Source of the DNA: Bacteroidota bacterium
Lineage (GTDB): Bacteria; Bacteroidota; Ignavibacteria; UBA10030; SZUA-254
Reading direction: 5' to 3'
DNA: 39,535 bases
Assembly: GCA_035292425.1 (NCBI GenBank)
Contig: DATDQD010000066.1
Span: 1-39,535 of the forward strand
Part shown: piece by piece, positions 23,330 to 39,535 of the stretch
How the letters are laid out: each line of letters opens with the position of its first letter
How positions within the stretch are numbered: position 1 is the first letter of the stretch
Made by a program: the position numbers and the translations under genes
Notes under the pieces: generated by a model
Database searches by the model: none
What the model was told of the DNA's origin: nothing
What the model saw: the letters and a program-made list of their open reading frames with translations, nothing else

Positions 23330-24069
23330 CGCACTTCTCCATCAAGTTCTGAGTAGGAGACTTTTGGCTCGGTGTTGAGTGACGGTTTCAACACGTGCAA
23401 TTTATTCATCCGCTTGAACCTGGCAAGCGGGCTTGCCTTGCTCCGGACATCGCCGAATATCCTGGCCTGTGTCGGGCAGACTTCCACGCAGGCCGGCAGC
23501 ATCTCCCTGGTGAGGCGGTGATAACAGAACGTGCATTTATCGGCAGTCATTGTCTCCGGGTGTATGTAGCGTGCCCCGAAGGGACAGGCCTGGATACAAT
23601 ACCGGCATCCGATGCACCTCTCGCTGTCGACCAGGATGACCCCGTCTTCCGTCATGAAGGTCGCCCCCACGGGGCACACCTGTACGCAGGGAGGATTATC
23701 GCACTGATTGCATAATTTCGGGACAAAAAAGCTCCTCATGATCTCCTTTTCATTGATTACATCCCGCGACCCTGCCAGCCTTTCGTCGATGTTCTGTACG
23801 GCGGCTTCGCCGTCCTTCCGGATAATGTAGCGTTCCACCCAGGTACGGAAGAAGAACGGTTCCCGGGGAACGTTGTTTTCGCTCTTGCAGGCCTCGACGC
23901 AGCTTCCGCACCCGATACACTTGTCTATCTGAATTCCCATCCCGTAGTAGTGGAGAGACGGATCGTATCCCTCAGGTGTTTTCGCCCTGGCTTTTTTCCA
24001 CATGCCCGCCAGAAGACCGGTGGAGACAAGAACAGTTGTGGCCTTCCTAAAAAATTTTCTGCGCATCAT
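23326..24069 (-). CDS. Tat-exported 4x[Fe-S] ferredoxin subunit (NrfC/HmcB/DsrO-like)
   Basis: Leader MMRRKFFRKATTVLV. Cys groups CIGCGSCVEAC, CNQCDNPPC..C, CIGCRYCIQAC, CTFCYHR...CVEVC. Confidence 0.9.
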   Translation of the reverse strand: MMRRKFFRKATTVLVSTGLLAGMWKKARAKTPEGYDPSLHYYGMGIQIDKCIGCGSCVEACKSENNVPREPFFFRTWVERYIIRKDGEAAVQNIDERLAGSRDVINEKEIMRSFFVPKLCNQCDNPPCVQVCPVGATFMTEDGVILVDSERCIGCRYCIQACPFGARYIHPETMTADKCTFCYHRLTREMLPACVEVCPTQARIFGDVRSKASPLARFKRMNKLHVLKPSLNTEPKVSYSELDGEVR

Positions 24070-24070
24070 G

Positions 24071-26340: not shown

Positions 26341-26456
26341 AGGCCGGAGTCGTCAAGAACAGGCGGTAATGTAATGATTGCCGCGCATAAAGGAAATAGC
26401 CCGGACGGAGCGGATGAGATGAAATATTCCGATTTTTCCGGATTCTTCTTCACGAC

Positions 26457-27425
26457 TCATCGATAGGCAAAGAGCATCGCGTAAATGATCCAGAGCACCA
26501 CGCTGAAGCCGATGGTCAGCGCCGTCCAGCCGAACGCCTTGACGGCCCGTGTGACGATCGGCTGGTAGGGTTCGACGAGGCGGGATTCGAGCCGGCCGCT
26601 TTTGACGAGTTCCTCGTATTCCGCCGGCTTGTCCAGCGCGAATTCGTCAACGTCCATACGCCCCGTGAAGATGACGATGTCCATCGGGAATTTTTCCGGG
26701 CGGAGATGGGTGTTGAAGAAGTGCACGGTGAAGATAAACCCCACGGCGAGCAGGGCCTCGTCGCTGTGGATGATGGTGGCCACGTTGAGCAGCGAGCCGG
26801 GCATGAAGTTGGTGAAGAGTTCCGGGAACCAGAGCATCAGGCCGGTCGAACCGATGACCGCCACGCCCCAGAAGACGGCGAAATAATCGAACTTCTCCCA
26901 GTAGGTCCACCGGCCGAACCGCGGGCGCGGTCCCCTGCCGACGAACCACTTCACAGAGCCGATGAAATCGGAAAGGTCCTTCCCGTTGAACATCATCGAG
27001 TCGGGGCTGAAGATCATCGACTTCCACGTCCGTCCATCCCGCTTCTTCATCCTCAGGACGTCGATGACATGGATGAAGAAAACGGCGAACATGATGACCG
27101 CGGCGAACCTGTGGAGGGATCCCGCGCTCTCGAACCCGCCGAGGAGGTGCGAGAGCAGAACCGCCCAGCCGGTGTATGAAAACTTGAGCGTCAGGCCGGT
27201 GAGCGCGAGCGTCAGAAAGCTGATGATGAGGAAAATGTGCAGTGCCCTGTTGAGCCTGCTGAAACGGAGGAATTGACGTTCTCCCGCGGGAGAGCTTTCC
27301 TCCGCAGGAAAGTACGATGACCCTGCCTCCGTGGCCGTCGGCGTGGAAGGGGACGGGGATGGGGACGGCGCCGGTGCGGAACCGCCGGAGGAGTCCTTCT
27401 GCGCACTGTCGTTCCGGTTATCCAT
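26457..27425 (-). CDS. Diheme cytochrome b, HydC/FdnI/PhsC-like (CbcB-like)
   Basis: ATG 27425 (MDNRND...) overlaps the upstream stop by 8 nt. Four to five TM helices with conserved His (RALHIF, SLHRFAAVIMFAVFFIH, IIHSDEA, TVHFF). Clearly paralogous to the C-terminal domain of 29433..31751. Confidence 0.8.
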   Translation of the reverse strand: MDNRNDSAQKDSSGGSAPAPSPSPSPSTPTATEAGSSYFPAEESSPAGERQFLRFSRLNRALHIFLIISFLTLALTGLTLKFSYTGWAVLLSHLLGGFESAGSLHRFAAVIMFAVFFIHVIDVLRMKKRDGRTWKSMIFSPDSMMFNGKDLSDFIGSVKWFVGRGPRPRFGRWTYWEKFDYFAVFWGVAVIGSTGLMLWFPELFTNFMPGSLLNVATIIHSDEALLAVGFIFTVHFFNTHLRPEKFPMDIVIFTGRMDVDEFALDKPAEYEELVKSGRLESRLVEPYQPIVTRAVKAFGWTALTIGFSVVLWIIYAMLFAYR

Positions 27426-29436
27426 CCTGTCCGTCTTTCGGGCCGCCCGCACTCCCGGGTTCATCGTCCGCGGCGCCCGGCGGCTGCGCGCCGTTCTTCT
27501 CTTCCAGATGTTTCGCTTTCAGCAATCGACGGTACTGGAACGCCCGGGGGAGCCAGAGGAGCGTGTGGACGCCGCCGAGAAGGAACGTTCCGATCAGGAG
27601 CGACGTCATCCCCCAGAACGTCCAGAAGAGGAAGGGATATTTTTCCGGGTCGTGGTGCGTCGCGTGGGTCAGGTACCCGGCGAACCGCCTCGACGCCCCT
27701 TCGTGGCACTTCTGGCAGGTGCCGACGACGTTGTCGTGGCTCAGGTGCGAGCGGGGATCGGCCACGGGGAGGATGTCGTGGGCGCCGTGGCAGTCGTAGC
27801 ACTTCGCCGTCTTCGTGTAGCCGAGCTGGGACACCTTCCCGTGGTAGGTATCGAAGTAGGTCTCGGCGATCTTCTCGTGGCACCGCCCGCACTGCTGCAT
27901 GATTTCAAGCTTGAAGCCCTGGGAGTCCGCCCGCCTGATCTTGTGCGCGGTATGGCAGTCGTCGCAGACCGGGAGATCTTTTCCGGACTTCGAGACGAGT
28001 TTCGAATGGATGCTCTTTTGGAACTGCTCTTCGATGCCGTGGTGACACTTGCCGCACGTCTTCGGGAGGTTCCGGGGATTGACGCTGGAGAGGCTGTCGC
28101 TCCGCGGGAGCACGCTGTGCGGCGTGTGGCAGTTGCTGCACATCGCGGTCACGGTGAGCCCGCTCTTCATCAGTCCCTTGCCGTGAATGCTCTCGGTGTA
28201 CAGCTCGATGATCTGGTGCTCGATCCCCGTGTAGCGGACGGCGGCTTTCTGGCCCTCCCGGTGGCACCGTGCGCAAAGGAGGGGAACGTTTGTCGGGAAC
28301 GTCGGCGACGAAGGATCCAGTTTCCCCTTCACGCCGTGCTGCCCGTGGCACTCCTTGCAGGCCGGACCGTTCGGGTCGTTGTTGGTGACGAGTTTTCCGT
28401 GGAGACTGACGGTAAATTGCTGGCCCACCTCGGCATGGCACGACGAGCAATCCACTTTTTTTGTGATCGCATCGCAGGGACGCACATTCGATGCGTTCAC
28501 ATCCGAGTGGCACTGGCTGCACGATATCTTCTGGTGCCTCGACACACCGAGCTCCTGTGCCCGCACGAAGAGCGGCCTTCCGTCCCGGGAGGACTTCAGA
28601 TCCGGTCTCTCGTGGCAGGTGAGGCAGTCCCTGTCGGCCATTCCCTGCGTGTAATAAACTTTCCGGACCTTGTGCGGCTGGTGGCAGTCCACGCATGCCG
28701 GGAGGACGTGCTGTTCCTTCTCCCACAATTCGCCCTTGATCACCTTGCGGTGGACCGTTTCGATCTCGGCGTGGCACTTCGCGCAGGTCGAGGCGATGTT
28801 CTTCCGGGCGATCGATGACGCCGGGTTTGTGTGGGGCAGGATCGAGTGCCCGGTATGGCACGAGGCGCAGTTCGGCGCGACGATGAGCCCCTTTCTCAGG
28901 AGCCCCTCGCCGTGGATGCTCTCCGAAAAATTCTCCAGAATGTTGTCCTGGTGGATCACCCGCTGCCGCTGGACCGGGGATCCCTCCTGGTGACACTTTC
29001 CGCAGAGGAACGGGATTTTCAGAGGCGAAATGGCGGAATTACGATCCGATTTCGGCAGGATATTGTGTGTGCCGTGGCAGTCGTTGCAGCGCGGGGCGAG
29101 CCTGTCCCCCCGTGCCGCGGCCTGGCCATGGAGGGACTTCGATTCTTCGGCCTGTTCGGCCGAATGGCAGCCGCCGCAGTCCACCGGCGCGACGTCCTCC
29201 TCGTGGGGGAACTGCTTCCCGGCCAGGCCGGCGTGGCAGGAGACGCAGCCGTTCGACCCGTGGACCGAGCCTGCGTGGGTGTTCGCGTTGACGTACACCG
29301 AAATCTTTTTCCCGCCGCGTCTCCCCTCGAGCGATTTATCCTCGTGGCAGGAGAGGCAGTCGGCGTCCTCCTGCGCGAACGCGGGAATCGCAAGGAGAAG
29401 CAGGAGCGCCGGCGTTATAAAAATCCGCCGGATCAT
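27418..29436 (-). CDS. 19-heme cytochrome c with signal peptide and C-terminal TM anchor (CbcA-like, expanded)
   Basis: 672 aa, 19 CXXCH motifs counted by hand. C-terminal TM FLFWTFWGMTSLLIGTFLLGGV. ATGA overlap with the upstream gene stop. Confidence 0.85.
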   Translation of the reverse strand: MIRRIFITPALLLLLAIPAFAQEDADCLSCHEDKSLEGRRGGKKISVYVNANTHAGSVHGSNGCVSCHAGLAGKQFPHEEDVAPVDCGGCHSAEQAEESKSLHGQAAARGDRLAPRCNDCHGTHNILPKSDRNSAISPLKIPFLCGKCHQEGSPVQRQRVIHQDNILENFSESIHGEGLLRKGLIVAPNCASCHTGHSILPHTNPASSIARKNIASTCAKCHAEIETVHRKVIKGELWEKEQHVLPACVDCHQPHKVRKVYYTQGMADRDCLTCHERPDLKSSRDGRPLFVRAQELGVSRHQKISCSQCHSDVNASNVRPCDAITKKVDCSSCHAEVGQQFTVSLHGKLVTNNDPNGPACKECHGQHGVKGKLDPSSPTFPTNVPLLCARCHREGQKAAVRYTGIEHQIIELYTESIHGKGLMKSGLTVTAMCSNCHTPHSVLPRSDSLSSVNPRNLPKTCGKCHHGIEEQFQKSIHSKLVSKSGKDLPVCDDCHTAHKIRRADSQGFKLEIMQQCGRCHEKIAETYFDTYHGKVSQLGYTKTAKCYDCHGAHDILPVADPRSHLSHDNVVGTCQKCHEGASRRFAGYLTHATHHDPEKYPFLFWTFWGMTSLLIGTFLLGGVHTLLWLPRAFQYRRLLKAKHLEEKNGAQPPGAADDEPGSAGGPKDGQDG

Positions 29437-31751
29437 TTTTTCTCCCCTTCGCGGCCTTCGGGCTTTGCCCCGGTGGCGGGTTTTCCGCCAGGCGTTCCCG
29501 TTCCGGGTTTGCCCTCCAGCTTCTCCCCCATCATTTCATCCGCGGGAAGTTCTTTCCTGATCCGCCCCGCGACGATCCGCCGCAGTTCGAGCGGATGGTC
29601 TTCCTCCATCTCCTCCTCCGTCAGCGTGCCTTTCCAGAACGCCACGTTGAGGGGGTAGACGTCGGGGTTGAAGATCACAAAATAGAAGTGCCACACGATG
29701 ACGGCCAGCGTGGCCAGCCACGCCTCGTAGTAGTGGATGGTGCGCGCCACGTCGTATCCCAGCTTCGTGAGCAGGCCGATGAAGGTATTGTCGAACCACA
29801 TGATGAGCCCGGTGACGCCCATGACGGAGGTCCCCCAGAGGAGGGCCCAGTATTCCGCCTTCTCGATGTAGCAGAACCGGTCGAAGAGCGGGCGGGTGCC
29901 GGACAATCCGAGGTTGTATTTCATCATCGCGATGGCGTCCTTCGCGTCCTGGCGGCGCGGGAGCATGTCGAAAATCAGCCGGCGCCCGGGGACCGTGAAG
30001 AATACGTACCAGACGTGGTAGAAGCTCGCGGCCAGCATGACCACCCCGGCGACGCGGTGGATCAGGCTCCTGGTGTCGAAGACGGAATCGCTCAGCGCCC
30101 GTATCCACTGCACCCACCAGACCTCGGGGAACCTGAGCATGAACCCGGTAACGACCAGCGTCATGAAGCTCAGCAGGAGAGCGGCATGCTGGACGCGCTC
30201 GTTCTTGCTCATCCTCGGGTAGAGTTCGTGGCTCGTATAGGGATGGGGGATGAGCCCGCGGCGGATCATCAGCTTCCGGCGGGACTTCTTTACGAAATCG
30301 AGCGCATTGTGCGCCAGCATCCCGCCGATGGTGAGCACGATCAGGAGGATGTAGGCCGTCGCGATCCAGTAGAGCATCGGCTCCTCCGTCCGCGACGACT
30401 CGTCCACGTGGACCCGGCCGATGGTGAAGCGCTCGTTGGCCCCGGGGTGGCAGCTTCCACAGGTCCCGGCAAGGTTGGCCTTGCTGATCATGGATGTGGA
30501 ATCGGCCGACGACTTGATATTATGCGTCCCGTGGCAGCTGGCGCAGTTGGCGACTTCGACCGAACCGCCGCGGATGGCAAGGCCGTGGTAACTGTCGGAG
30601 AAGGTCTTGAACCGGTCGCTCTCGATGCCGTACTTGGTCGAGAGGGCGACGGAACTGTGGCAGGGCGAGCAGACCTGCGCCGAGAGGTTCTGCCTGGCGA
30701 CGGGCGATTTCGGGTCGGTGTGCTTGAGGATCGTGTGCTCACCGTGGCAGTCCGTGCAGGTCGGCGCGTCGACCACGCCCTTCTGCACCGCGACTCCGTG
30801 CGCGCTCTGGTTGTACACGTCCGCGATCTCGCCGTGGCACTTCGAGCAGGTCCCGGCGATATTCAGCTTGCTGACCTTCGCCGCCGGATCGTATCCCTTC
30901 GCCATCTGGTGGCTGCCGTGGCAGTCGACGCAGTTCGGCGCCCTGTCATTCCCGTTCATGAGGGCGCGGCCGTGGACGCTCTGTTCGTAGGCCGCGATGA
31001 AACCCGCCGACGGCGATGTCCGCGCCCGGACGTCGGGATTGTCCAGGTGGCAGGTAAGGCAGAGCCGTTCCTGCGCGAGTTTCATACCGACGCCGTTATC
31101 CGGGTGGCTCGCCGGAGTGATGTCGTGGCCGTGGCAGCCGAGGCATTCCGGCGCGCCCTTCACGCCGGCGGCGAACGCCCCGCCGTGCGCGGAGGCCGCG
31201 AACTGTTCCACCACGTCGCCGTGGCACTGGCCGCAGCCCTCGGATATGTTCGCGCGGTTGAACGGCGACTCTTTCTCTTTCGGCGAGATGACATTATGGG
31301 TCCCGTGGCAGTCCTTGCACGACACCGAAGGCTCCTCTTTCCGGGCGATGGCCTGTGCCAGCTGGGGATGGAACCTGTGCTTCAGCTCGGCGCCCTTGTG
31401 GCAGGTGAGGCACTCCACCGGCCGGATGTTTTTCCTGTGAGGCATTTCCGCGGGATCGAAACCGGGGTGGCAGGCGGTGCAGACGAGCTTCTTATGCGGC
31501 GAACGGCCGAGCACGGCGGCGTCGACGAAGAGCGGCACCTGCGCCCCGTTTCTTTCGGTTGTGAGCGACGTGTCCGAGTGGCAGGCCAGGCAGTCGTCCC
31601 TCGACTGCGCCCTCGCCGGTCCGCTCAGGATCCAGAACGCGGCGAAGAGCAATGCGGCCGCCGCGAAGACGACCGTGATCAGGAGGCGGACGCAGAGGCG
31701 CCGGAAGGCGTCTCCCGGTGTTGGAGTGTCCGTGTTCACCGGGGCATTCAT
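29433..31751 (-). CDS. Fusion: 13-heme cytochrome c domain plus C-terminal diheme cytochrome b membrane domain (CbcL-like architecture)
   Basis: ATG 31751 (MNAPVNTD...) forms an ATGA overlap with the upstream stop. 13 CXXCH motifs, then 5 TM with conserved His (RVQHAAL, LIHRVAGVVMLAASFYH, TIHYYEA, VWHFY). Confidence 0.85.
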   Translation of the reverse strand: MNAPVNTDTPTPGDAFRRLCVRLLITVVFAAAALLFAAFWILSGPARAQSRDDCLACHSDTSLTTERNGAQVPLFVDAAVLGRSPHKKLVCTACHPGFDPAEMPHRKNIRPVECLTCHKGAELKHRFHPQLAQAIARKEEPSVSCKDCHGTHNVISPKEKESPFNRANISEGCGQCHGDVVEQFAASAHGGAFAAGVKGAPECLGCHGHDITPASHPDNGVGMKLAQERLCLTCHLDNPDVRARTSPSAGFIAAYEQSVHGRALMNGNDRAPNCVDCHGSHQMAKGYDPAAKVSKLNIAGTCSKCHGEIADVYNQSAHGVAVQKGVVDAPTCTDCHGEHTILKHTDPKSPVARQNLSAQVCSPCHSSVALSTKYGIESDRFKTFSDSYHGLAIRGGSVEVANCASCHGTHNIKSSADSTSMISKANLAGTCGSCHPGANERFTIGRVHVDESSRTEEPMLYWIATAYILLIVLTIGGMLAHNALDFVKKSRRKLMIRRGLIPHPYTSHELYPRMSKNERVQHAALLLSFMTLVVTGFMLRFPEVWWVQWIRALSDSVFDTRSLIHRVAGVVMLAASFYHVWYVFFTVPGRRLIFDMLPRRQDAKDAIAMMKYNLGLSGTRPLFDRFCYIEKAEYWALLWGTSVMGVTGLIMWFDNTFIGLLTKLGYDVARTIHYYEAWLATLAVIVWHFYFVIFNPDVYPLNVAFWKGTLTEEEMEEDHPLELRRIVAGRIRKELPADEMMGEKLEGKPGTGTPGGKPATGAKPEGREGEKK

Positions 31752-32578
31752 CTTACGTGGTGCACTTCCTGTATCGCCTCGATGACGAGGGGGAAATACC
31801 GGTCGAGGGCGCACTCGACGTCGTCGCGCATGTCACAGTGCCCGTCCGGCGACTGGTGCTGGCAGACGGAGCAGACCTTCTCCCTCAGTCTGGCGACATA
31901 CGCGTCGAGGTTGTCGCCCGGGGTGGTGAGAACGATATCGATGATCTCCGGCAGGTAGCGGTTGATGGCGCAGGAGTCGTATGTGGACGCGACGCAGAGT
32001 CCCGATGGGGTGCGATCGATGCACTTCATGCAGACCCTCTGCCGTATTTCCTCGAGGTAGCGTTCTTCGTAAGGCATGATGGTCCTCTCTTCTGTGTTCC
32101 ATGGTAGCGGATCGGTGAATTTCCTGGCGGGCGACCCGGGCTTGACGATCATGACCGGAACCGCGGCGTTTCTGACGATCTGGTCGGCAATCCCCCCGGC
32201 GCGGACAGGATCCCCCGGCGAATCGGCCCGGACAGGGAGCACGATGACGTCCACGCCTTCCTCGCGCGCGAACCTCAGGATTTCCCGGGCCGGGACCCCG
32301 TTCCGGACGATGCAGGCGAATCGTGATTGCGGCCTGATTTTTTTCAGGAAGAAATCCTCCATCGCGCGATACTTCTTCCGCATCTCCGCGTCCCCCTCCG
32401 CCGATTCGCCCGGTCCCGGGGCGATCCGGTCGGGCGTCCGGGTGATGACGTGGATCAGGTAGATCTGGGATTTCTTCTCCCTGGAAAGCGTCAATGCGGC
32501 TTCGACGGCACAGAGCGACGCGTCCGTTAAATCCACGGGGACGAGTATCCTGTTCATATTTGTCAGTTTTTTCGACAT
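31748..32578 (-). CDS. Universal stress protein (UspA) domain fused to a duplicated 4-Cys C-terminal module
   Basis: Start at ATG 32578 (MSKKLTNMNRILVPVDLTDAS... is USP-like). C-terminus has two CX2CX8CX7C repeats, each followed by A-[IL]-[ND]-RY-[LF]-P. The track ORF extension to 32830 crosses an AT-rich intergenic region and the crp stop. Confidence 0.75.
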   Translation of the reverse strand: MSKKLTNMNRILVPVDLTDASLCAVEAALTLSREKKSQIYLIHVITRTPDRIAPGPGESAEGDAEMRKKYRAMEDFFLKKIRPQSRFACIVRNGVPAREILRFAREEGVDVIVLPVRADSPGDPVRAGGIADQIVRNAAVPVMIVKPGSPARKFTDPLPWNTEERTIMPYEERYLEEIRQRVCMKCIDRTPSGLCVASTYDSCAINRYLPEIIDIVLTTPGDNLDAYVARLREKVCSVCQHQSPDGHCDMRDDVECALDRYFPLVIEAIQEVHHVR

Positions 32579-32637
32579 CCCTGTATAAAATATAATCAAT
32601 CCCCGGTTCCGCGGGTATGATATGGAAAAGGTCGAAA

Positions 32638-32653
32638 CATGATTTTTATCATG
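32638..32653. promoter_or_regulatory. Perfect 16-bp palindrome CATGAT-TTTT-ATCATG (FNR/CRP-family-like TGAT-N4-ATCA core)
   Basis: Read directly from the sequence. Centred about 67 nt upstream of ATG 32578, in the AT-rich gap between the Crp/Fnr gene and the USP/cytochrome operon. Confidence 0.4.
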
Positions 32654-32826
32654 TATCACCCCGGAAGCGCCTAAAGTGTTGAAAATTTCGGGGAGGACGG
32701 TTGAGGGATCAGGGATGACGGAAATCGTGAAACGGGTGGTGTTTAAGCGGTGCCGCGCCTGATATGGAGCGGCGCAGGACGGGGGTGGAGCCGGGAACGG
32801 GGACGGTTCGGCGGCGAGTTGCCCGG

Positions 32827-33537
32827 TCAATCCGGAAGCCGGGCCGCGTCGCGCAGGGCGGGCAGGTTCACGATCTTGATCTTCTTCCCCTCGAGGAGGA
32901 GGATCCCCTCCTTCGAGAATTCGGAGAGGAGGCGGATGACCGTTTCTGTCGCGGTGCCGATGTAATTGGCGATGTCTTCCCTTGAGAGTTTGCTTCGAAG
33001 GGTATGGTGGTCGTCCTCGGTGCCGTAAAACTCCGTCAGCATCAGGAGCGTTTCCGCCAGGCGTTCCCGCACCTGTTTCTGCGAGAGCGACACCTGCTTC
33101 TGTTCGGCCTTGGCCAGGTCCTGCGTGAGCTGGCGGATGATTCTGCCGGTGAGCGCGGGATTTTCGTTCATGAGCGAGTGGAACGTCTGGCGGGGGACGA
33201 AACAGATCGATGCGTCCTCGATGACGGTGGCGGAGAGCTCGTAGGGCGTCCCGCTCACGAGCGCCCTGTATCCGACGACGTCCCCCTCGCGGGCCAGGCG
33301 GACGATCTGTTCGCGGCCGGCCTCGCCCACCTTCGTCAGCTTGACCTTGCCCCGGTTGATGCAGTAGAGGCCCGAGGGATAGTCGCCCTCGTAGAACAGC
33401 ACCTGGCCGCTCCGGTGGAAATTACATCCCTTGTGGAGCTGGAGCCTCCCGAGTTCGTCCTGCGAGAGTACGCCGAACATGGAATGGAGGCGCGGCAGGC
33501 ACGTTTCGCAGTGGGGTATTTCGAATGTGTTTTTCAT
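32827..33537 (-). CDS. Crp/Fnr-family transcriptional regulator
   Basis: Start at ATG 33537 (MKNTFEIPHCETC...). cNMP-binding-like beta-roll (GDYPSGLYCINRGKVKL), C-terminal HTH REDIANYIGTATETVIRLLSEF with an FNR-type E..R recognition helix. Confidence 0.85.
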   Translation of the reverse strand: MKNTFEIPHCETCLPRLHSMFGVLSQDELGRLQLHKGCNFHRSGQVLFYEGDYPSGLYCINRGKVKLTKVGEAGREQIVRLAREGDVVGYRALVSGTPYELSATVIEDASICFVPRQTFHSLMNENPALTGRIIRQLTQDLAKAEQKQVSLSQKQVRERLAETLLMLTEFYGTEDDHHTLRSKLSREDIANYIGTATETVIRLLSEFSKEGILLLEGKKIKIVNLPALRDAARLPD

Positions 33538-33602: not shown

Positions 33603-34640
33603 TCACCGCCGCAGCGGGACGGGCCTGTCGTTGAACGTGACCCGGGCCGGCATCTCCGATCTGTCGAATTCCAGCCGCAGTACGAACGGTATGTCCCGTT
33701 CACCGAGGCCAACGGCTTTCGCGATGCGCGGGTCCACCGAGAACTGGAGGTCGCGGAATTCGACCGTATGGAAATCGCCCACGGTCCGGGTCTCCAGGGT
33801 CGGAAAGCGGGCGAAGCGGAGGTATTCCCCCGCGAACTCCGTTCGGGACGCTTTGGAGGCGAACCGATCGGTGTCATTGGGGAAGTACTCCGGTTCCGAA
33901 ACGCCGCCGTCCGACAGGAGTTCGATGTATTGCCGCACCACCCCGGAATCGGTCGTGGCCAGCCCGACCCACTTCAGGATGCTGAGCGGCTGCGGGAGCA
34001 CGGAAACTGTGAGTGTTTCCCTCCCCGATTTCCGGAGTTCGTCCCGGAAGATGCCGAGAGCAACGGATTGAAACCGGTATTCCGCGCCGAGATAGAGCAG
34101 GGCGAAGGCGACAGAAAGGTATCCCAGGACCGCGCGTCTCCGGGGGAAGATTTTCCCTGCGGCGAGAAGCAGCGTGAGGATACCCGTAAACCACGGATCG
34201 ATGATGAACATCCAGTCGAGCGAGAACCTCGTCTCCGAGAACGGAAAGAGGATCTGCGTGCCGTAAGGCGTGATGAGGTCGATGAAGATATGGAAGAGGA
34301 TGCCCGCCATCGAACAGATCCAGAGCCGCCGGAACCCGGCGCGCGCCGTGGCGAGGTGGACGACGAACGCCGGGACTAGCGCCAGCAGCGGGATCCCGGG
34401 AAGCGAATGGGTGAAGCTCCGGTGGTACTGCAATGCCGTGAGCGGCTCGACGAAGAAATTCGCCACCACGTCGATGTCCGGGATGTTCGACGAGAGGAGC
34501 AGCGCCCAGAACACTGCGCGCCCGGTTTTCGGGCGGTGCGCACGGCTCCCGCTCCCTGCAGGCTCGGCAGAAGCGGCGGAATCGTCCGGGAGCACACGCC
34601 CGGCGAGGACGCCGACGAGCGAATGCGTGATGTTGTCCAT
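33603..34640 (-). CDS. Membrane-bound metal-dependent hydrolase (YdjM/DUF457-like) with C-terminal extra domain
   Basis: N-terminus MDNITHSLVG, then HRSFTHSL and FHIFIDLITPYG motifs typical of DUF457. Several TM helices. Confidence 0.6.
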   Translation of the reverse strand: MDNITHSLVGVLAGRVLPDDSAASAEPAGSGSRAHRPKTGRAVFWALLLSSNIPDIDVVANFFVEPLTALQYHRSFTHSLPGIPLLALVPAFVVHLATARAGFRRLWICSMAGILFHIFIDLITPYGTQILFPFSETRFSLDWMFIIDPWFTGILTLLLAAGKIFPRRRAVLGYLSVAFALLYLGAEYRFQSVALGIFRDELRKSGRETLTVSVLPQPLSILKWVGLATTDSGVVRQYIELLSDGGVSEPEYFPNDTDRFASKASRTEFAGEYLRFARFPTLETRTVGDFHTVEFRDLQFSVDPRIAKAVGLGERDIPFVLRLEFDRSEMPARVTFNDRPVPLRR

Positions 34641-34663: not shown

Positions 34664-35593
34664 TTACAGGATCTCGGAGATCTCGTGGAGGGTGAAGCGC
34701 GAGCGTTTCCCCTTGAGGGCGACGTCGCTGAACGTCTCGCGGATGCGGACCCGGCCGAAGACCTCACGGACCGCCGTGTCGGAAACCAGCATGGAGGTCC
34801 CGGTCTGCTTGTTGGCGTCCTCGATCCTCTCGGCCACGTTCACGGCATCGCCGATGACCGCCATCTTTTCCATGTCGGCCATGCCGATCGTCCCGACCAC
34901 CACCGGCCCGTAATGGATGCCGATGCGGATGCGGAATTTCCTCCGGTACATGGCCTGCAGGTAAGGGTTGAGGGAATCGACCTCCCAGAGCATCTCGAGC
35001 CCCGCGCGGACCGCGCTGTAGACCGGGTCGGGACGGTCGTCAATTCCAAAAAGGGCCATGATCCCGTCCCCGACGTAATCATTGATCCGGCCCCCGTGGG
35101 CGTCGATCACCCTGCCCATCGTGATGAAGTACCGGCGGAGCGCGTGGATCACGTCGTAGGCGGGAAGCGACTCGGCGAAGGAAGTGTAGTCGCCGATGTC
35201 CGCGAAGAGAATGGCGAGGTTCTTCTCCTCCCCGACCGACCCGAGCTTGAGGCCCGGGCCGATCTGGTTCGAGAGTTGTATGTCGAGGGTGTCCAGGACC
35301 ATCCTGCGCACCGTGACGTCGCCGCTCACGGTGGTCTGGCAGGCGAGCCTCACGTGCGGCCCGAAGTTGAGTTTGTCGGCGATTTTTTCTTCGGCCCCCT
35401 GGCGCATCGAGCATCTGTCCAGTCCTGAAACCACCACGACGCGGCAGGTGGAACAGCGGGCCTTCCCGCCGCAGACGTGGACGTGGGGTATGCCGGAGTC
35501 GAGCGAGGCTTCGAGGATGGTGGTCTTCCCCCCCGCCTTCATCTCCTTCTCGTCCGGGAGCATGAAGATCGTATTGACGCTATCGCCGGCCAT
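34664..35593 (-). CDS. 2Fe-2S ferredoxin domain fused to a class III adenylate/guanylate cyclase domain
   Basis: N-terminus: CGGKARCSTC...LACQT (plant-type-like ferredoxin Cys pattern). C-terminus: ILFADIGDYTSF, YVGDGIMALFG, RIGIHYGPVVVGTIG and VIGDAVNVAERIE cyclase blocks. Confidence 0.85.
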   Translation of the reverse strand: MAGDSVNTIFMLPDEKEMKAGGKTTILEASLDSGIPHVHVCGGKARCSTCRVVVVSGLDRCSMRQGAEEKIADKLNFGPHVRLACQTTVSGDVTVRRMVLDTLDIQLSNQIGPGLKLGSVGEEKNLAILFADIGDYTSFAESLPAYDVIHALRRYFITMGRVIDAHGGRINDYVGDGIMALFGIDDRPDPVYSAVRAGLEMLWEVDSLNPYLQAMYRRKFRIRIGIHYGPVVVGTIGMADMEKMAVIGDAVNVAERIEDANKQTGTSMLVSDTAVREVFGRVRIRETFSDVALKGKRSRFTLHEISEIL

Positions 35594-35622: not shown

Positions 35623-36225
35623 CTATTCTTTCTTCCCGGGCTGGGCCTTCTTCATCTCCAGCCTGATGGTGAGTTTGACGTCCTTCGAGACCACGAGCCC
35701 GCCGGCCTCGAGGGCCCTGTTCCAGGCGACGCCGTAGTCGAAACGGTTGATGGTGGTTTCAGCCTTCCATCCCGTCCTGACGCCGCCTTTCGGGTCGGTG
35801 ATGCTGCCGAAGTAGGTCGCATCCAGAACGACTGGTTTTGTCGTGTCGCGAATCGTGAGTTCCCCCGTGATCCTGTACTTGTTTTCGCCCGCTTTCTCGA
35901 GCTTCGTACTCTTGAACGTGGCGAGGGGGTATTTCGCCGCGTCGAAGAAATCGGCGCCGAGCAGGTCGTTGTCGCGGTATTCGTTGTCGGTCGCGATGCT
36001 CGCGGTCTTGATCGCGGCCTCGATGGCCATCGCCGAAAAATCGTCCCCCTTCGACGTCATCGTCACGTCGAAATCCCTGAAGCGGCCGGTCGCTTCCGAG
36101 ATCAGCATGTGGGTGACGGCGAATTCGATCGAGCTGTGCGCCCTGTCGAGCTGCCACGTGTCCTGGGCAGCTACCGGTCCCGCGGCGAGAAGCGCGAGTC
36201 CCAGAAGAACTGAGAGTTTGGTCAT
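35623..36225 (-). CDS. YceI-family periplasmic polyisoprenoid-binding protein
   Basis: Signal peptide, then WQLDRAHSSIEFAVTHMLISEATGRFRDF, the characteristic YceI N-terminal block. Confidence 0.85.
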   Translation of the reverse strand: MTKLSVLLGLALLAAGPVAAQDTWQLDRAHSSIEFAVTHMLISEATGRFRDFDVTMTSKGDDFSAMAIEAAIKTASIATDNEYRDNDLLGADFFDAAKYPLATFKSTKLEKAGENKYRITGELTIRDTTKPVVLDATYFGSITDPKGGVRTGWKAETTINRFDYGVAWNRALEAGGLVVSKDVKLTIRLEMKKAQPGKKE

Positions 36226-36289: not shown

Positions 36290-36778
36290 CTACCGGTCGC
36301 CGTTCATGCGGTCCCGGCCGTACGTTTCAGCGAGGCCCAGCCCCAGCTTCCTGAGGAGCCGGGAGAGGTCCTCCTGCTCCTTCGCGTCGAGCACCGACGC
36401 CATCGCTCCGACGAATGCCGCGTGTTTCCTGAACGTCGAGGAGAAGAGCCGGCTCCCCTTCGTTGTGAGTTTTGCGACCACCCTGCGCCTGTCGTGCTTC
36501 GCGTGGACGCGTTCCACCAGTCCGTCCCGCTCGAGGTGATCCACCACGCAGGTGATGTTCCCGCTGCTCACCAGCCGCTTGCGCGAGAGTTCTCCCAGGG
36601 TCAGCGGCCCCAGGTGGCCCAGGCATTCCAGGACGCCGAACTGCGGTTCGGTCAGGCCGCCGAACGAGTTGATGTGTTTCCCGGCGAGCCGGCCGAACGT
36701 GGAAGATGCCCGGGCCAGCTTGATCCACAGCGCGAGGGCGCGGTCGGCCTTTTCCCCGTATGTGCGCCTCGGATTCAA
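36290..36778 (-). CDS. MarR-family transcriptional regulator
   Basis: 162 aa. Winged-HTH block LTEPQFGVLECLGHLGPLTLGELSRKRLVSSGNITCVVDHLERDGLVERVHAKHDRR. Confidence 0.85.
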   Translation of the reverse strand: MNPRRTYGEKADRALALWIKLARASSTFGRLAGKHINSFGGLTEPQFGVLECLGHLGPLTLGELSRKRLVSSGNITCVVDHLERDGLVERVHAKHDRRRVVAKLTTKGSRLFSSTFRKHAAFVGAMASVLDAKEQEDLSRLLRKLGLGLAETYGRDRMNGDR

Positions 36779-37074
36779 TGTTTTAAACTTAAAGGAATGG
36801 GACGCAAGATAAGAACGGCCGGGGAAATATACAAGTTCCCCGATATTGCGAATACCCCCCGCGAAAGAGGTTCATCCTCCGGATCTCTTCGATGCCGCCA
36901 CTCCGCACTCCATAATTGTCGATGCCCCCCCCGGGGGGGGTCTGGAATCATCATCAAAATTCATTAAAAAATGGACTATACGAAGATAACCTCTTCCGCC
37001 CCCTTTACCTTCACCCCGGCCCTGGCTATATTGGGGGGTCTTCAATCGTACACAACATCCGAAAGGGTTCGTCC

Positions 37075-37671
37075 ATGAAAAAAATCGTGCTCGCGGGGAT
37101 CGTTGGGGGCCTTATTCTCTGGATATGGGGGTTCATCTCGTGGGTCGTTCTGCCGCTTCATACCGCCGCCGAACGTCCGATACCGAACGAATCAGAAATT
37201 GCGGAAACGCTTGCGCGCGCGCTTCCGGAAAAGGGGGTATATCTGTTCCCCATGATGCCGCAGGAAACAGCCGACATGTCCCCGGCCGGGCAGGAGGCCG
37301 CTATGACCGCCTACGTGGCGAAATTCCAGGCGGGGCCGCACGGGAGGATCTTCTTCGATCCGGCCGGCGGGGACCCCTTCATGGTCAACCAGATGATTTC
37401 CGGGCTGTTGATCTTCATGCTCTCGGCTTCGATCGTGGCGTGGCTCCTGTCGAGGAGCACCGCCGCCGGGGAATCGTTCCTCTCGAGGGTCGTCTACTGC
37501 GGGATGATCGGTACGCTCATCGCGGTCGGATGTTACCTCTCGGAATGGAACTGGATGGGGTATTCGTTCGACTGGACCCGGGCGCTCATGTTCGACAGCA
37601 TCGTGGCCTGGCTGCTCGCCGGTATTGGTATTTCGGCGATTGTCAAACAGAAAGCGACAGCGGCAATGTAA
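37075..37671 (+). CDS. Hypothetical 4-TM membrane protein
   Basis: ATG 37075 (MKKIVLAGIVGGLILWIWGF...) lies within ORF 36916..37671. Hydrophobic segments. Followed by a terminator. Confidence 0.55.
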   Translation: MKKIVLAGIVGGLILWIWGFISWVVLPLHTAAERPIPNESEIAETLARALPEKGVYLFPMMPQETADMSPAGQEAAMTAYVAKFQAGPHGRIFFDPAGGDPFMVNQMISGLLIFMLSASIVAWLLSRSTAAGESFLSRVVYCGMIGTLIAVGCYLSEWNWMGYSFDWTRALMFDSIVAWLLAGIGISAIVKQKATAAM

Positions 37672-37695
37672 GTCAATCATGCCGCCGGATTGATG

Positions 37696-37731
37696 CTGCC
37701 CCGGAACCATCCCCGGGGCAGTTTTTATTTT
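37696..37731 (+). terminator. Rho-independent terminator
   Basis: Stem ctgccccgg (37696..37704) pairs with ccggggcag (37713..37721) around an 8-nt loop, followed by TTTTTATTTT. Confidence 0.65.
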
Positions 37732-37745
37732 GTACCTTGTCCCCG

Positions 37746-39535
37746 ATGAACGCTCCCACAAAACCGCTCTTGATCTTCGACGGCCAGTGCGCATTCTGCC
37801 GCATGTGGATCGAACGGTGGAAGACCATCACGGGCGATACCGTGGACTATGTGACCGCGGTGGATTATGAGACCTCGCCCGATCCTCCCGCCGCGTCGCA
37901 CCCGGCCATACCGGCGGGGGAATACAAAAAAAGCGTCATCCTCGTCCTGCCGGACGGGTCCTGCCTGACCGGGGCACGGGCTGTCTTCACCGCCCTCGGG
38001 AAAACCTCCTCGGGACGGTTCTGGCTTTCCCTCTATAATAAGGTCCCCGGATTCGGTGCAACGACCGAGAGTCTTTACCGTTCAGTCGCGACGCACCGCG
38101 ACGAAATGCATCTCCTGACGCGGGCGCTCTGGGGATCGTCCGTCATCTCCCCCGGTTATTCGGCCACGCGATGGGTCTTCCTCAGGGGAATGGCCGTTGT
38201 CTACGGCATTGCGTTCGCGTCCCTCTTCCCGCAGATCCTCGGGCTTGTCGGCTCGAATGGGATTTCTCCGGCGGAAATGTTCCTCGAAGCTGTCCACGCG
38301 CAGATGGGCGGCGCGGGCGTCCTGTACTATCCCACCCTGGCATGGCTCAATCCCGGCGACGGGTTCCTCACCGGGCTCTGCATCGCGGGAATGGTTTCAT
38401 CGGGCATGCTCCTGTTCGGGATCATACCGCGGGTTTCGGCATTCCTCTGCTGGCTCCTCTATTTTTCCCTCGTCGTCGCGGGCCAGGTCTTCCTCCAGTT
38501 CCAGTGGGACATACTATTATTGGAGGCGGGATTTCTGACCATTTTTTTCGCTCCCCCCGGCCTGTTTCGGTTTCTCCCCGACGCTCTCGAATCACAGCGG
38601 GCGGTCCGGTGGCTCCTCTGGCTCCTGGTGTTCCGGCTCATCTTCATGTCGGGCGTGGTGAAGCTTTCGGCGGGCGACCCGAACTGGTGGAACCTCTCCG
38701 CGCTCTCCTTCCATTACCAGACGCAATGCCTCCCGAGCCCGGTGGCGTGGTACGCACACGCTCTGCCGCTCTGGTTTCACCAGGCTTCGGCGTTTTTCAT
38801 GTTTACGATTGAGATCGGCGCGCCGTTTTTGATTATCACGCCGAGGCGCCTGCGCCACCTCGGCGCATTCCTGCTGATCGGGTTGCAGGTCCTCATCCTC
38901 CTCACGGGCAATTTCGCCTTCTTCAACTGGCTGTCGATCGTGCTCTGCCTTACGCTCATCGACGACGGCGTGGTGAAAAAACTCATCCCGGCGTTTCCGC
39001 TCAAACGCACTCCGACGACGACGATCGTCACCCCTCTCGCCGGGCGGACGGCCGTCACCGCCGACGCGGCGTTTTCTCCCCGACGGCGTATGGGCATCAT
39101 CGGCCGGGCGCTCATGTCCCTCATGCTTCTTCTCAACTTCAACCAGCTCGCCGGACTCGCGATCCCGCGCTTCTGGTGGCCCTCCCCGGTGGCGATGTTT
39201 TCCGGATGGGCGGCGCATTTTTACGTCGTGAACGGTTACGGCCTCTTCCGCGTGATGACAACAAAACGCCCCGAGATCGTCCTCGAGGGGAGTTACGACC
39301 GAACGAACTGGAAACCGTACGGGTTCCGGTACAAGCCTGGGGATGTTTCGAAACCGCTCCCCTGGGTGGCGCCCCACCAGCCCCGCCTCGACTGGCAGAT
39401 GTGGTTCGCCGCCCTCGGGGACTACCGGAGCAACGGGTGGGTCGTCAACCTCGCGATACGACTGCTGGAGGGTTCGCCAGACGTCCTTGCGCTTATGGGC
39501 GACAATCCATTCCCGGAGCGCCCGCCGGCGTACAT
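37746..39535 (+). CDS. Fusion of DUF393/DCC-type thiol-disulfide oxidoreductase domain with a lipase maturation factor (LMF1/DUF1222)-family membrane domain (3' end beyond window)
   Basis: Absent from the ORF track (no stop in the window). Hand translation from ATG 37746 gives MNAPTKPLLIFDGQCAFCRMWIERW (DCC CxxC motif). A long polytopic region follows with LMF hallmarks NGYGLFRVMTTKRPE and HQPRLDWQMWFAAL. Open to nt 39535. Confidence 0.75.
   Translation, partial: MNAPTKPLLIFDGQCAFCRMWIERWKTITGDTVDYVTAVDYETSPDPPAASHPAIPAGEYKKSVILVLPDGSCLTGARAVFTALGKTSSGRFWLSLYNKVPGFGATTESLYRSVATHRDEMHLLTRALWGSSVISPGYSATRWVFLRGMAVVYGIAFASLFPQILGLVGSNGISPAEMFLEAVHAQMGGAGVLYYPTLAWLNPGDGFLTGLCIAGMVSSGMLLFGIIPRVSAFLCWLLYFSLVVAGQVFLQFQWDILLLEAGFLTIFFAPPGLFRFLPDALESQRAVRWLLWLLVFRLIFMSGVVKLSAGDPNWWNLSALSFHYQTQCLPSPVAWYAHALPLWFHQASAFFMFTIEIGAPFLIITPRRLRHLGAFLLIGLQVLILLTGNFAFFNWLSIVLCLTLIDDGVVKKLIPAFPLKRTPTTTIVTPLAGRTAVTADAAFSPRRRMGIIGRALMSLMLLLNFNQLAGLAIPRFWWPSPVAMFSGWAAHFYVVNGYGLFRVMTTKRPEIVLEGSYDRTNWKPYGFRYKPGDVSKPLPWVAPHQPRLDWQMWFAALGDYRSNGWVVNLAIRLLEGSPDVLALMGDNPFPERPPAY

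Follow-up and report, generated by a model that had tools for sequence, protein, structure and literature searches.

A soluble ferredoxin-fused class III cyclase with a conserved, apparently remodelled base-reading pocket, encoded near an FNR-like regulator

The window analysed here, a stretch of DNA of 39,535 nucleotides taken at its full length, carries on its minus strand a gene for a 309-residue protein in which a ferredoxin domain is joined to a class III nucleotide cyclase domain. The reading frame (34664..35593) has a GC3 of 0.89 and is a real, conserved gene. On the same strand it is followed by a gene of the ydjM family and then by one of the Crp/Fnr family, an order that had been read by eye and that the ORF list and the Pfam matches confirm. 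The features to which we refer below are the following.

34664..35593, minus strand: gene of the soluble Fer2-class III cyclase, 309 aa, stop codon included (ORF list, Pfam)
35327..35545, minus strand: [2Fe-2S] ferredoxin domain, residues 17-89 (Pfam Fer2 PF00111, E 1e-9)
35471-35473, 35453-35455, 35444-35446 and 35339-35341, minus strand: codons of the ligand cysteines C41, C47, C50 and C85, in that order (codons checked)
34763..35227, minus strand: class III cyclase catalytic domain, residues 123-277 (Guanylate_cyc PF00211, E 9e-22)
35198-35200 and 35066-35068, minus strand: codons of the metal-binding D132 (motif FADIGDYT) and D176 (motif NDYVGDG, which also holds D172)
35078..35080, minus strand: codon of Asp172, which takes the place of the adenine-specifying Lys or guanine-specifying Glu (HMMER alignments to Cya2, 6fht and OaPAC)
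34925..34927, minus strand: codon of Arg223, in the motif R-I-G-I-H, Arg in the clade that shares Asp172
34859..34867, minus strand: codons of Lys243-Met244-Ala245, with A245 at the second specificity position and K243 a clade-specific Lys
34838-34840 and 34826-34828, minus strand: codons of the transition-state residues N252 and R256
34706-34708, minus strand: codon of the triphosphate-binding K296, just C-terminal of the Pfam match
35623..36225, minus strand: yceI gene, 29 bp upstream of the cyclase (PF04264, E 1.3e-45)
36290..36778: marR gene (MarR Pfam match)
33603..34640, minus strand: gene of a ydjM-family membrane hydrolase, between cyclase and regulator (PF04307, E 9.6e-36)
32827..33537, minus strand: gene of an FNR-type regulator of the Crp/Fnr family, 236-aa form (Pfam cNMP_binding and HTH_Crp_2)
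32637..32654: perfect 18-bp palindrome ACATGATTTTTATCATGT with an FNR-like TGAT-N4-ATCA core, ahead of the usp and multihaem genes

The fusion of a [2Fe-2S] ferredoxin-like domain to a cyclase domain had been proposed in an earlier reading of the letters (the sequence-only reading), and Pfam bears it out: both PF00111 and PF00211 match, and all of the motifs quoted at the time are present. The four cysteines of the ferredoxin domain lie in the motifs CGGKARCSTC (C41, C47, C50) and LACQT (C85), with the spacing C41-x5-C47-x2-C50-x34-C85, and are invariant in 120/120 close homologs, all of which share the Fer2 plus cyclase architecture. This spacing follows the pattern C-x5-C-x2-C-x(about 35)-C, which we take to be tied to the vertebrate/ISC type of ferredoxin, and together with the PF00111 match it places the domain in that type. 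Profile comparison showed the domain to be weakly similar to ISC Fdx and NqrF, and its PDB matches include E. coli Fdx (1i7h) and the [2Fe-2S] ferredoxins 3lxf and 3ah7.

The cyclase domain scores 78 bits against PF00211, for which the cutoff is 21.9. Its best sequence match among solved cyclases (HMMER) is Synechocystis Cya2 (2w01, E 1.8e-23), which is also the best structural match (Foldseek; TM 0.88, rmsd 1.4-1.6 A) of an AF2 monomer model with a pLDDT of 90.3 and a pTM of 0.82; TM values of 0.85-0.88 were obtained for this model against Cya2, Spirulina CyaC and P. aeruginosa CyaB. No transmembrane segment is predicted in the 309-aa protein, which is devoid of hydrophobic segments. The metal-binding aspartates and the Asn/Arg pair of the transition state, earlier described as intact, are indeed in place, and the triphosphate-binding Lys is likewise present. 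D132 is kept in 119/120 homologs and D176 in 120/120; the motif MAVIGDAVNVAERIE carries A245, N252 and R256; and N252, R256 and G295-K296 are conserved among the homologs as well as in the clade that shares Asp172 (the D clade). A single chain carries all six residue roles, which agrees with a homodimeric enzyme. Because the metal, transition-state and triphosphate residues are kept, we predict that the enzyme is active and that its recognition of the base is altered. Cyclase domains are clearly degenerate in some relatives (for example L035, which reads EEAQ, and L041), and one could suppose that the present one, too, is a non-catalytic scaffold for an electron-transfer ferredoxin, or conversely that the Fer2 domain is a cluster-less relic. 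However, these catalytic residues and the four cysteines are conserved across the whole clade, and we hold either possibility to be very improbable.

The two positions that determine the purine base depart from the usual pattern. By eye, the Lys had been read as Asp and its Asp/Thr partner as Ala, and gap-free HMMER alignments to solved cyclases give the same assignment. D172 stands opposite the Glu of Synechocystis Cya2 (tidEFMGDG), the Lys of the Cya2 E488K fusion 6fht and the Lys of OaPAC (vtKFIGD), and A245 stands opposite the Gly of Cya2 (kyGvvGaqVN) and the Thr of OaPAC (yTilGDAVN). The Lys plus Asp/Thr of a canonical adenylate cyclase are thus replaced by D172 and A245.

Among the 120 closest homologs the two positions covary perfectly, being either N-T or D-A(S,V,M). 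The proteins of the D-[A/S/V] type are monophyletic (62/62), with the N/T proteins as their sister group and K/T forms at the base, and include members from Bacteroidota-like MAGs, Hymenobacter, cyanobacteria, Poribacteria and KSB1. Within this D clade, where pairwise identity goes down to 46%, D172 is found in 62/62 members, R223 in 100%, K243 in 61/62 and A245 in 58/62 (the others having S or V). Position 223, an Arg in the D clade, is mostly Gly among the K/T and N/T relatives. K243 accompanies D172 in 14/15 D representatives and is found in 5/129 non-D representatives, but since the D clade goes back to a single evolutionary event, such co-occurrence counts are not independent observations. 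In a wider sample of 50% clusters, D/T and N/A pairs are also present, so that the residue pair is no strict code; in this wider family the first specificity position may be K, N, D, S, Q, R, A, T, V, M or E. The strict retention of D172 in proteins as little as 46% identical argues for a specific role rather than for tolerance, and judging from these alignments the D172/A245 pair is conserved and not a product of decay. The base-reading pocket would have been rebuilt through the changes of K to D at 172 and of T to A at 245, together with the appearance of K243 and R223. It is this conserved D172/A245 subclade that is novel, the Fer2-cyclase fusion itself being already known.

The sequence-only reading considered the product nucleotide to be unpredictable from the sequence, and we concur, with the addition that an Asp combined with a small residue leans towards the logic of guanylate cyclases. 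In those enzymes a Glu at the first position is the main guanine contact and the second residue varies but is small, being Cys or Ser (PMC7384201). The second residue is Gly in Cya2 (PMC4215837) and Ala in XC_0250, a proven bacterial guanylate cyclase, which reportedly has this Ala in common with the R. centenum enzyme (PMC3770947). A245 is in line with such small or neutral residues (Cys, Ser, Gly, Ala), and the first position holds not the Glu of guanylate cyclases but an Asp, which is acidic as well and one methylene shorter. From this resemblance, acidic first and small second residue, GTP is favoured as the substrate, with cGMP as the product, although we would put this at slightly under even odds; ATP is a serious contender, and another substrate or a dual one appears unlikely.

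Cya2 resembles the present enzyme in that the Lys position is acidic, the second residue is small and, in the alignment, a Lys stands two residues ahead of the Gly, as K243 is ahead of A245 (E-K-G versus D-K-A). It differs in that the residues themselves are Glu and Gly, where we find Asp and Ala, and in being regulated by a CHASE2 membrane sensor, where we find a ferredoxin domain. In Cya2 the Asn is, moreover, followed by a Tyr, which is reported to raise guanylate cyclase activity (PMC4215837), and this position is occupied by Glu in the present protein and by Ser in most of the D clade. The guanylate cyclases XC_0250 of Xanthomonas campestris and that of R. centenum, which we compared by description only, are likewise class III enzymes, of proven cGMP production, with Ala at the second position; they differ in lacking the canonical Asn/Arg pair (Leu/Ala in XC_0250) and a Fer2 domain, and in having true cNMP-binding receptors encoded nearby. 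A literature search, in which subscription papers were poorly covered so that its negative outcome is weak evidence, turned up neither biochemical data on a soluble Fer2-cyclase nor a characterised cyclase that has Asp in place of the Lys.

The same residues may also be read as those of an ordinary redox-regulated adenylate cyclase, which would make cAMP as CyaC of S. meliloti does and in which K243 or a water would replace the lost Lys. This is a possibility of real weight. The K/T pair is ancestral in the Fer2-cyclase family, the first specificity position is very variable across this family, and the characterised relative, CyaC, yields cAMP and reportedly interacts with a CRP-like protein. 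Class III specificity is, in addition, reportedly set during catalysis and not during substrate binding (PMC7384201). K243 and R223 arise exactly where K172 was lost, which fits a relocated base-contacting Lys; as both accompany D172, the Asp may be only a salt-bridge partner, with K243 reading the adenine. On the other hand, the Asp is strictly kept across a clade diverging to 46% identity, a negative charge at the site where the Lys contacts adenine N1 would be unfavourable for ATP and is guanylate-cyclase-like, and A245 removes the N6 acceptor in the same way as in the proven bacterial guanylate cyclases. In mycobacterial Rv1900c (N/H) and Rv0386 (Q/N) the Lys and Asp positions are replaced and the enzymes are still active, Rv1900c reportedly remaining an adenylate cyclase in spite of its non-canonical pair; these are single proteins with other residues and no Fe-S domain, in contrast to the large conserved clade found here. 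Returning to the lean towards GTP, one may speculate that the D172-R223-K243-A245 clade as a whole represents widespread, unrecognised iron-sulfur-regulated bacterial guanylate cyclases (or other non-ATP cyclases), which its residue pattern makes quite possible without making it the better bet.

With its purine-specifying residues being non-canonical, the enzyme could in principle act on pyrimidines, as the cyclase of an antiphage system of the Pycsar type, producing cCMP or cUMP, and PADLOC PycC profiles do hit its cyclase domain, the best of them at 78.9 bits (E 8.8e-23). This score equals that of the generic Pfam cyclase profile (78 bits) and therefore reflects family-level similarity only. 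Moreover, no neighbouring gene matches any PADLOC model, no effector gene adjoins the cyclase in the window locus or in related loci, and Fer2-cyclases are widespread, chromosomally encoded and found in fusions with redox domains. We give the Pycsar explanation hardly any credence.

The regulator encoded two genes downstream was taken in the sequence-only reading as the sensor of the cyclase product, driving the multihaem operon by way of the palindrome. Such a circuit would be in keeping with the arrangement of the genes, as the genes of cyclase and regulator share a strand and, probably, an operon, the regulator begins 5 bp past the cyclase in one relative that is 90% identical (L001), and the cyclase-regulator order is kept in two others (L089 and L090). 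It would also be in keeping with the cNMP_binding Pfam domain of the regulator and with the conservation of the palindrome ahead of the usp and multihaem genes. Precedents are CyaC with Clr and, reportedly, cGMP with the CRP-family protein CgrA of R. centenum (PMC4681086).

The regulator itself, however, is FNR-like. In its 236-aa form, the start of which we infer from relatives, its best NCBIfam match is Fnr, and it aligns with A. fischeri FNR from HC(E/Q)(T/D)C onward. The cNMP signature of CRP consists of the nucleotide contacts E72, R82-S83 and T127-S128 (PMC10187061). In the regulator the E72 position is Tyr and the T127/S128 pair is Lys-Ala, and the phosphate-binding loop is without Arg/Lys in 111/121 members of the regulator family. 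As all of the CRP nucleotide-contact residues are missing, the regulator is probably not the receptor of the cyclase. In E. coli FNR the cluster ligands are C20, C23, C29 and C122. The regulator has four invariant cysteines, of which C10, C13 and C112 align with FNR ligands; the C29 position of FNR is Ser here, and C59, invariant at a different place in the beta-roll, may be a fourth ligand. With E. coli/A. fischeri FNR it further shares the N-terminal HCxxC, the C122-equivalent Cys, an FNR-like beta-roll loop, the E and R of the recognition helix and a target-like palindrome of the form TGAT-N4-ATCA, whereas its recognition helix has an Ile where that of FNR has Ser. These residues suggest that the regulator is more likely to sense redox state or O2 itself, through an Fe-S cluster and independently of the cyclase.

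Comparison of gene contexts points in the same direction. About 90 related loci were searched with the regulator of the window and with E. coli CRP, and a Crp-family gene within 6 kb of the cyclase was found only in the close lineage; three alphaproteobacterial loci have small cNMP-domain genes that are unrelated to the regulator. The adjacency of cyclase and regulator is limited to this lineage, in which the cyclase is at least 75% identical, and is absent at the other loci examined. A family-wide link between cyclase and Crp-type regulator was accordingly dropped. Other D/A members sit in unrelated gene contexts, and no FNR-like box is conserved ahead of the marR-yceI-cyclase unit when relatives are compared. 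The step from cyclic nucleotide to neighbouring regulator hence finds no support in the residues or in the adjacency, and we regard the proposed circuit as improbable.

Its downstream part fares better. The palindrome is real, conserved and of FNR type, being the sole TGAT-N4-ATCA in the window and kept as a footprint in four relatives with diverged flanks. Control of the multihaem operon by the regulator, which probably binds this palindrome ahead of the usp and multihaem genes, is plausible and does not need the cyclase. When one mismatch was allowed, the canonical FNR box TTGAT-N4-ATCAA matched once, at 3868; this does not exceed the chance level and was rejected. Relaxing the palindrome to three mismatches gave 37 matches, mostly within genes, and two-mismatch sites at 21348 and 37074.

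For the redox input there is a precedent in CyaC of S. meliloti (SMc01818), reportedly described by Wissig et al. in 2019 as a redox-regulated [2Fe-2S]/dihaem-B adenylate cyclase. [quoted passage not shown] The present protein is alike in that a Fer2 [2Fe-2S] domain with four Cys directly precedes a class IIIb-like catalytic domain, in which the geometry of the metal, Asn/Arg and Thr positions matches (K410, T484, N491 and R495 in CyaC). It is unlike CyaC in having no membrane segment within its 309 residues, where CyaC has its tetra-His dihaem-B quinone-sensing anchor, in having D/A plus K243 and R223 in place of the canonical K/T pair with cAMP as product, and in the FNR-like nature of its neighbour, where Clr binds cAMP. 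Rhizobial CyaC homologs were recovered with the query profile, and the rhizobial relatives have 5-6 transmembrane segments with conserved His, followed by Fer2 and CHD, and a K/T pair. In other organisms the Fer2-CHD module is joined to a haem peroxidase, a globin or a Rieske domain, to four CDGSH domains plus Rieske, to an NAD-binding flavin reductase or to a Ferric_reduct membrane domain. This variety of fused redox domains supports a redox input; by analogy with these fusions and with CyaC, the present cyclase would be under redox control.

Taken together, these observations suggest, with a probability of about 0.7, a soluble homodimeric class III cyclase that is gated by a [2Fe-2S] cluster and has a remodelled pocket, and for which the neighbouring regulator is probably not the receptor. 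According to this model, the protein would represent the CyaC-type iron-sulfur cyclases in a minimal form that lacks the anchor, working as a homodimer, with the N-terminal adrenodoxin-type domain binding a [2Fe-2S] cluster and serving as signal input. A distinct redox partner, which donates or accepts electrons, or else O2 or reactive species would determine the state of the cluster; its oxidation state or integrity would alter the packing of the ferredoxin domain on the catalytic domain, and this packing would in turn set the cyclic-nucleotide output. The receptor of the cyclic nucleotide would probably be encoded elsewhere.

To our knowledge, CyaC, a membrane protein, is the single class III cyclase for which control by an iron-sulfur cluster has been documented, and bacterial cGMP signalling is known from few enzymes, namely Cya2, R. 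centenum GcyA and Xanthomonas XC_0250, guanylate cyclases being considered, as far as we know, rare in bacteria. A soluble Fer2-cyclase of about 305 residues is a simple, easily expressed version, and the three natural specificity flavours, K/T, N/T and D/A, occur on otherwise alignable backbones. These proteins thereby offer a convenient system for asking how a [2Fe-2S] cluster gates a cyclase and what the specificity positions encode, and the varied redox domains fused to them suggest a general, little-studied family of redox-wired cyclases. If the D clade does consist of guanylate cyclases, redox state would be linked directly to cGMP in bacteria. For annotation, the label 'adenylate cyclase' is unsafe for the D clade, as is 'cAMP-binding' for the FNR-like regulator nearby.

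As for the remaining neighbours, the ydjM gene found here between cyclase and regulator is missing from that position in relative L001. The order marR-yceI-cyclase recurs in L001, L089 and L090. The gaps between these three genes are short and contain no minus-strand terminator-like site, for which reason they probably form one transcription unit. The surroundings are respiratory, with the FNR-type regulator and a large island of multihaem, NrfD, Rieske and Mo-oxidoreductase genes. Conserved neighbours of D/A members were sought at seven further loci (P0013, P0032, P0116, L009, L011, L012 and L015), and none recurs among them. A GTP cyclohydrolase I gene adjoins one D/A member only (L002/L003). 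Upstream of the marR-yceI-cyclase unit, a MarR-like palindrome, different from the FNR box, is conserved.

The gene under study encodes a two-domain protein, laid out as follows.

34664..35593, minus strand: Fer2-cyclase gene, ORF of 309 aa
aa 17-89: [2Fe-2S] ferredoxin domain (Fer2, PF00111; Pfam E 1e-9)
aa 123-277: class III cyclase domain (PF00211), C-terminal to Fer2 (Pfam E 9e-22)

All motifs quoted in the sequence-only reading were found in the 309-aa protein, with their codons mapped, and the third-position GC of the ORF (0.89) is typical for real genes of the window (~60% GC); the plus strand ORFs that overlap it are shadow frames. The Fer2 ligands are spaced C41-x5-C47-x2-C50-x34-C85, and the nearest relatives of solved structure are ISC/adrenodoxin-type [2Fe-2S] ferredoxins, for example 1i7h, 3lxf and 3ah7. 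The 309-aa sequence has no hydrophobic segment, and the protein is therefore taken to be soluble. An AlphaFold2 model, built with 41 homologs as input, is confident (pLDDT 90.3, pTM 0.82), its sole weak part being linker residues 111-115. For the cyclase half the best superposition is with Cya2, a guanylate cyclase of Synechocystis (TM 0.88, rmsd 1.4-1.6 Å), ahead of the adenylate cyclases CyaC of Spirulina, PAC and CyaB of P. aeruginosa; none of the structural matches to the model is a solved structure with both Fer2 and cyclase domains. The metal-binding Asp (D132 and D176) and the Asn252/Arg256 pair are conserved, as had been stated earlier, together with a C-terminal G295-K296, which makes the enzyme look catalytically competent.

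Ferredoxin-cyclase fusions are a known kind, exemplified by CyaC of S. meliloti. CyaC, a class III adenylate cyclase that acts as a homodimer, combines a dihaem-B 6TM anchor with a [2Fe-2S] cluster; its activity tracks the quinone redox state and its active-site residues are K410, T484, N491 and R495 (PMC10463352, PMC9552081). The alphaproteobacterial members of the family, of ~550-600 aa, share this layout, with 5-6 N-terminal hydrophobic helices carrying conserved His and a canonical K/T specificity pair. The window protein is therefore an anchor-less, soluble relative of a characterised redox-regulated cyclase. What is new relative to CyaC is the soluble form and the pocket made of D172, R223, K243 and A245 (D-R-K-A); no characterised example of either was found in the searchable literature. 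The family is widespread: all of the 120 closest database proteins (~305 aa) contain Fer2 and the cyclase domain and keep the four Cys, and a scan of species-representative genomes gave at least 569 confirmed Fer2-cyclase loci, those listed including Poribacteria, Acidobacteriota, Hymenobacter, cyanobacteria, Planctomycetota, Actinomycetota, Leptospira and many Alphaproteobacteria (Rhizobium, Ensifer and Agrobacterium among them). A full-length profile run against 1.84 billion 50%-identity cluster representatives matched 7,196 clusters at E up to 1e-30, an upper bound for the family because strong cyclase-only matches may be counted.

Relatives from other organisms (L, locus; P, protein) carry additional domains joined to the Fer2-cyclase module: a haem peroxidase (Leptospira noguchii L048, P0261, P0265), a globin (P0250, P0306), a Rieske domain (P0245), four CDGSH domains plus a Rieske domain (P0249), an NAD-binding flavin reductase (L026, P0282) or a Ferric_reduct membrane domain (P0272). 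In L035 it occurs with a Ser/Thr kinase and a globin, and the cyclase domain is degenerate. These partners are all redox, O2 or peroxide cofactor domains, and they lend strong circumstantial support to the idea that the signal would be electron transfer to or from the [2Fe-2S] centre. The ~305-aa form would then be the smallest version of the module, relying on separate partners or responding to oxidants by itself. The putative step from redox state to cyclic nucleotide is thus well supported by homology and domain fusions, and the variety of fusions points to a diverse family of redox-wired cyclases. DUF2769 also occurs among the fusion partners, and L024 among the fusion loci.

Cya2 (2w01) is also the best PDB sequence match to the query (E 1.8e-23), and HMMER alignments to solved cyclases have no gaps around either specificity position. 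D172 (NDYVGDG) falls opposite the Glu of Cya2 (DEFMGDG) and opposite Lys in OaPAC and in 6fht, the engineered Cya2 E488K adenylate cyclase; A245 (MAVIGDAVN) falls opposite the Gly of Cya2 and the Thr of OaPAC. The earlier alignment by eye of both positions was therefore correct. Among the 120 closest homologs the pairs are N-T (63), D-A (50), D-S (2), D-V (1), D-M (1), T-T (2) and K-T (1), the two positions covarying without exception. When 204 sequences are placed in a neighbour-joining tree with a CyaC-type long form as the root, K/T forms are basal and the D-[A/S/V] sequences form a single clade of 62 members with zero intruders, whose sister is a mostly N/T clade. Within the D clade (pairwise identity 46% at minimum, 63% on average) D172 and R223 are conserved at 100%, K243 at 98% and A245 at 94%, and Tyr136 replaces the usual Phe. 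Position 223 is mostly Gly in K/T and N/T relatives, and position 243 is Ser, Ala or Gln in K/T forms and Arg in N/T forms. The D/A pair is best read as a conserved, derived state with a clade-level signature. The residue at the first position varies among 144 cluster representatives: K (69), N (36), D (15), S (6), Q (4), R (3), A (3), T (2), V (2), M (2) and E (2). Because D/T (3) and N/A (2) pairs occur in this sample too, the coupling should be taken as a strong tendency and not as a code. K243 accompanies Asp in 14 of 15 representatives and other residues in 5 of 129, counts that are not independent events because the D clade has a single origin.

Adenylate cyclases read their base through a Lys at adenine N1 and an Asp/Thr at N6; guanylate cyclases rely mainly on a Glu that contacts N1/N2 of guanine, their second residue being variable (Cys or Ser) and perhaps giving shape complementarity only (PMC7384201). 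The Cya2 pair is E/G (PMC4215837), and E488K alone turns Cya2 into an adenylate cyclase. Xanthomonas XC_0250, which makes cGMP and not cAMP, has Ala at the second position; A150S abolishes its activity, and its authors noted that the guanylate cyclase of R. centenum keeps this Ala (PMC3770947). The D-K-A arrangement of the query parallels the E-K-G of Cya2 and so favours GTP, to which we assign a probability of about 0.45. ATP is only slightly less probable: the Asp side chain is shorter than Glu, the GC-boosting Tyr of Cya2 is missing, and K243 and R223 appear along with D172, so that a relocated Lys could read adenine with Asp merely anchoring it. Another or a dual specificity seems improbable. 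A Pycsar pyrimidine cyclase is unlikely: on the query the generic cyclase profile scores at least as high as the PADLOC PycC profiles, and the cyclase has no effector gene nearby. The product nucleotide is not predictable, as the sequence-only reading had held.

The earlier proposal also placed the cyclase two genes upstream of a Crp/Fnr-family regulator on the same strand, and this gene order was borne out.

36290..36778, minus strand: marR
35623..36225, minus strand: yceI, between marR and the cyclase gene
33603..34640, minus strand: ydjM, between the cyclase and regulator genes
32827..33537, minus strand: Crp/Fnr-family regulator gene
31748..32578, minus strand: usp, separated from the regulator gene by a 250-bp spacer
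29433..31814, minus strand: multihaem cytochrome c/cytochrome b fusion, after usp
14312-16768, minus strand: molybdopterin oxidoreductase, within the respiratory island

The respiratory island (12269-31814, minus strand) holds several multihaem cytochromes c, two of them fused or paired with cytochrome b, two NrfD-type membrane subunits, two 4Fe-4S proteins and a Rieske protein; a menaquinone gene (MqnA-like, 9883-10716) and a UbiA gene lie beyond it. From marR through the regulator gene the intergenic gaps are short, and no terminator-like sites occur between these genes on the minus strand. The related loci L001, L090 and L089 (cyclases 90%, 88% and 75% identical) share the arrangement yceI-cyclase-(ydjM)-regulator-usp-multihaem. 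The regulator of L001 starts 5 bp after the cyclase and ydjM is absent, while the window, L089 and L090 have it; this difference within the operon is a lineage-specific insertion or deletion. D/A members of 50-58% identity and one N/T member lie in unrelated gene contexts, and among all fetched loci no Crp-family neighbour of the cyclase was found outside the close lineage. In one lineage only (L002 7338-7988, L003 427-1098), 13 bp lie between the end of a GTP cyclohydrolase I gene and a downstream Fer2-cyclase of the D/A type, which shares 58% identity with the query.

The top curated family of the regulator is Fnr, and it aligns with Aliivibrio fischeri FNR starting at the N-terminal HC(E/Q)(T/D)C motif. 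The FNR ligands C20, C23 and C122 are matched by C10, C13 and C112, whereas the C29 position is Ser. C10, C13, C59 and C112 are invariant in 120 homologs (at least 49% identity; names from Bacteroidota and Ignavibacteria MAGs), and C59, in the beta-roll, may be the fourth cluster ligand of this family. Judging by these names, and by T9SS-tail proteins found beside the locus in relatives, the source organism probably belongs to a Bacteroidota/Ignavibacteriota-related group. CRP contacts its nucleotide through E72, R82-S83 and T127-S128 (PMC10187061). The regulator keeps none of these, having Tyr90 in place of Glu and Lys-Ala in place of Thr-Ser, and in 111 of 121 members the loop carries neither Arg nor Lys. 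Its recognition helix retains a Glu and an Arg of FNR type. By these residues it is predicted to be FNR-like and no cyclic-nucleotide receptor, its input being most likely its own Fe-S centre and not the cyclase product. The proposed link from cyclic nucleotide to the neighbouring regulator is not supported, given the missing CRP contacts, the FNR-like Cys and an adjacency confined to the close lineage.

The DNA sites of the region are as follows.

32637-32654: perfect 18-bp palindrome ACATGATTTTTATCATGT with an FNR-like TGAT-N4-ATCA core, upstream of usp
21348-21363 and 37074-37089: intergenic two-mismatch matches to it, CATGATGAATTTAATG and CATGAAAAAAATCGTG
36782-36793: conserved palindrome TTTAAGTTTAAA, just upstream of marR
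36925-36940: perfect hairpin-forming C8G8 run CCCCCCCCGGGGGGGG, intergenic, between marR and the plus strand gene

The core of the usp palindrome is unique within the window, and the site is kept upstream of usp in four relatives with diverged flanks. A putative route from the regulator through this conserved site to usp and the multihaem genes is plausible; this part of the circuit proposed earlier would not need the cyclase. CATGATGAATTTAATG and CATGAAAAAAATCGTG may be additional sites for the regulator or may match by chance. Upstream of marR there is no FNR-like box, and TTTAAGTTTAAA, with the perfect palindrome TTTAAGCTTAAA as its counterpart in L001 (~6800), is a likely candidate MarR operator for the marR-yceI-cyclase unit. 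A second conserved block, GACCTTTTCC...ATCATACCC...TATTTTTTATACAGGGATG, lies between the usp palindrome and the usp start. The universal stress protein encoded by usp (31748-32578, minus strand) is extended at its C-terminus by ~125 aa that contain two Cys-rich repeats in tandem (C-x2-C ... C ... C ... RY[LF]P). No Pfam family matches this extension, a possible module for binding a metal or an Fe-S cluster. On the plus strand, a long ORF (37125-39535) running past the window end encodes a DCC1-like thiol-disulfide oxidoreductase domain and lipase-maturation-factor (LMF1) domains.
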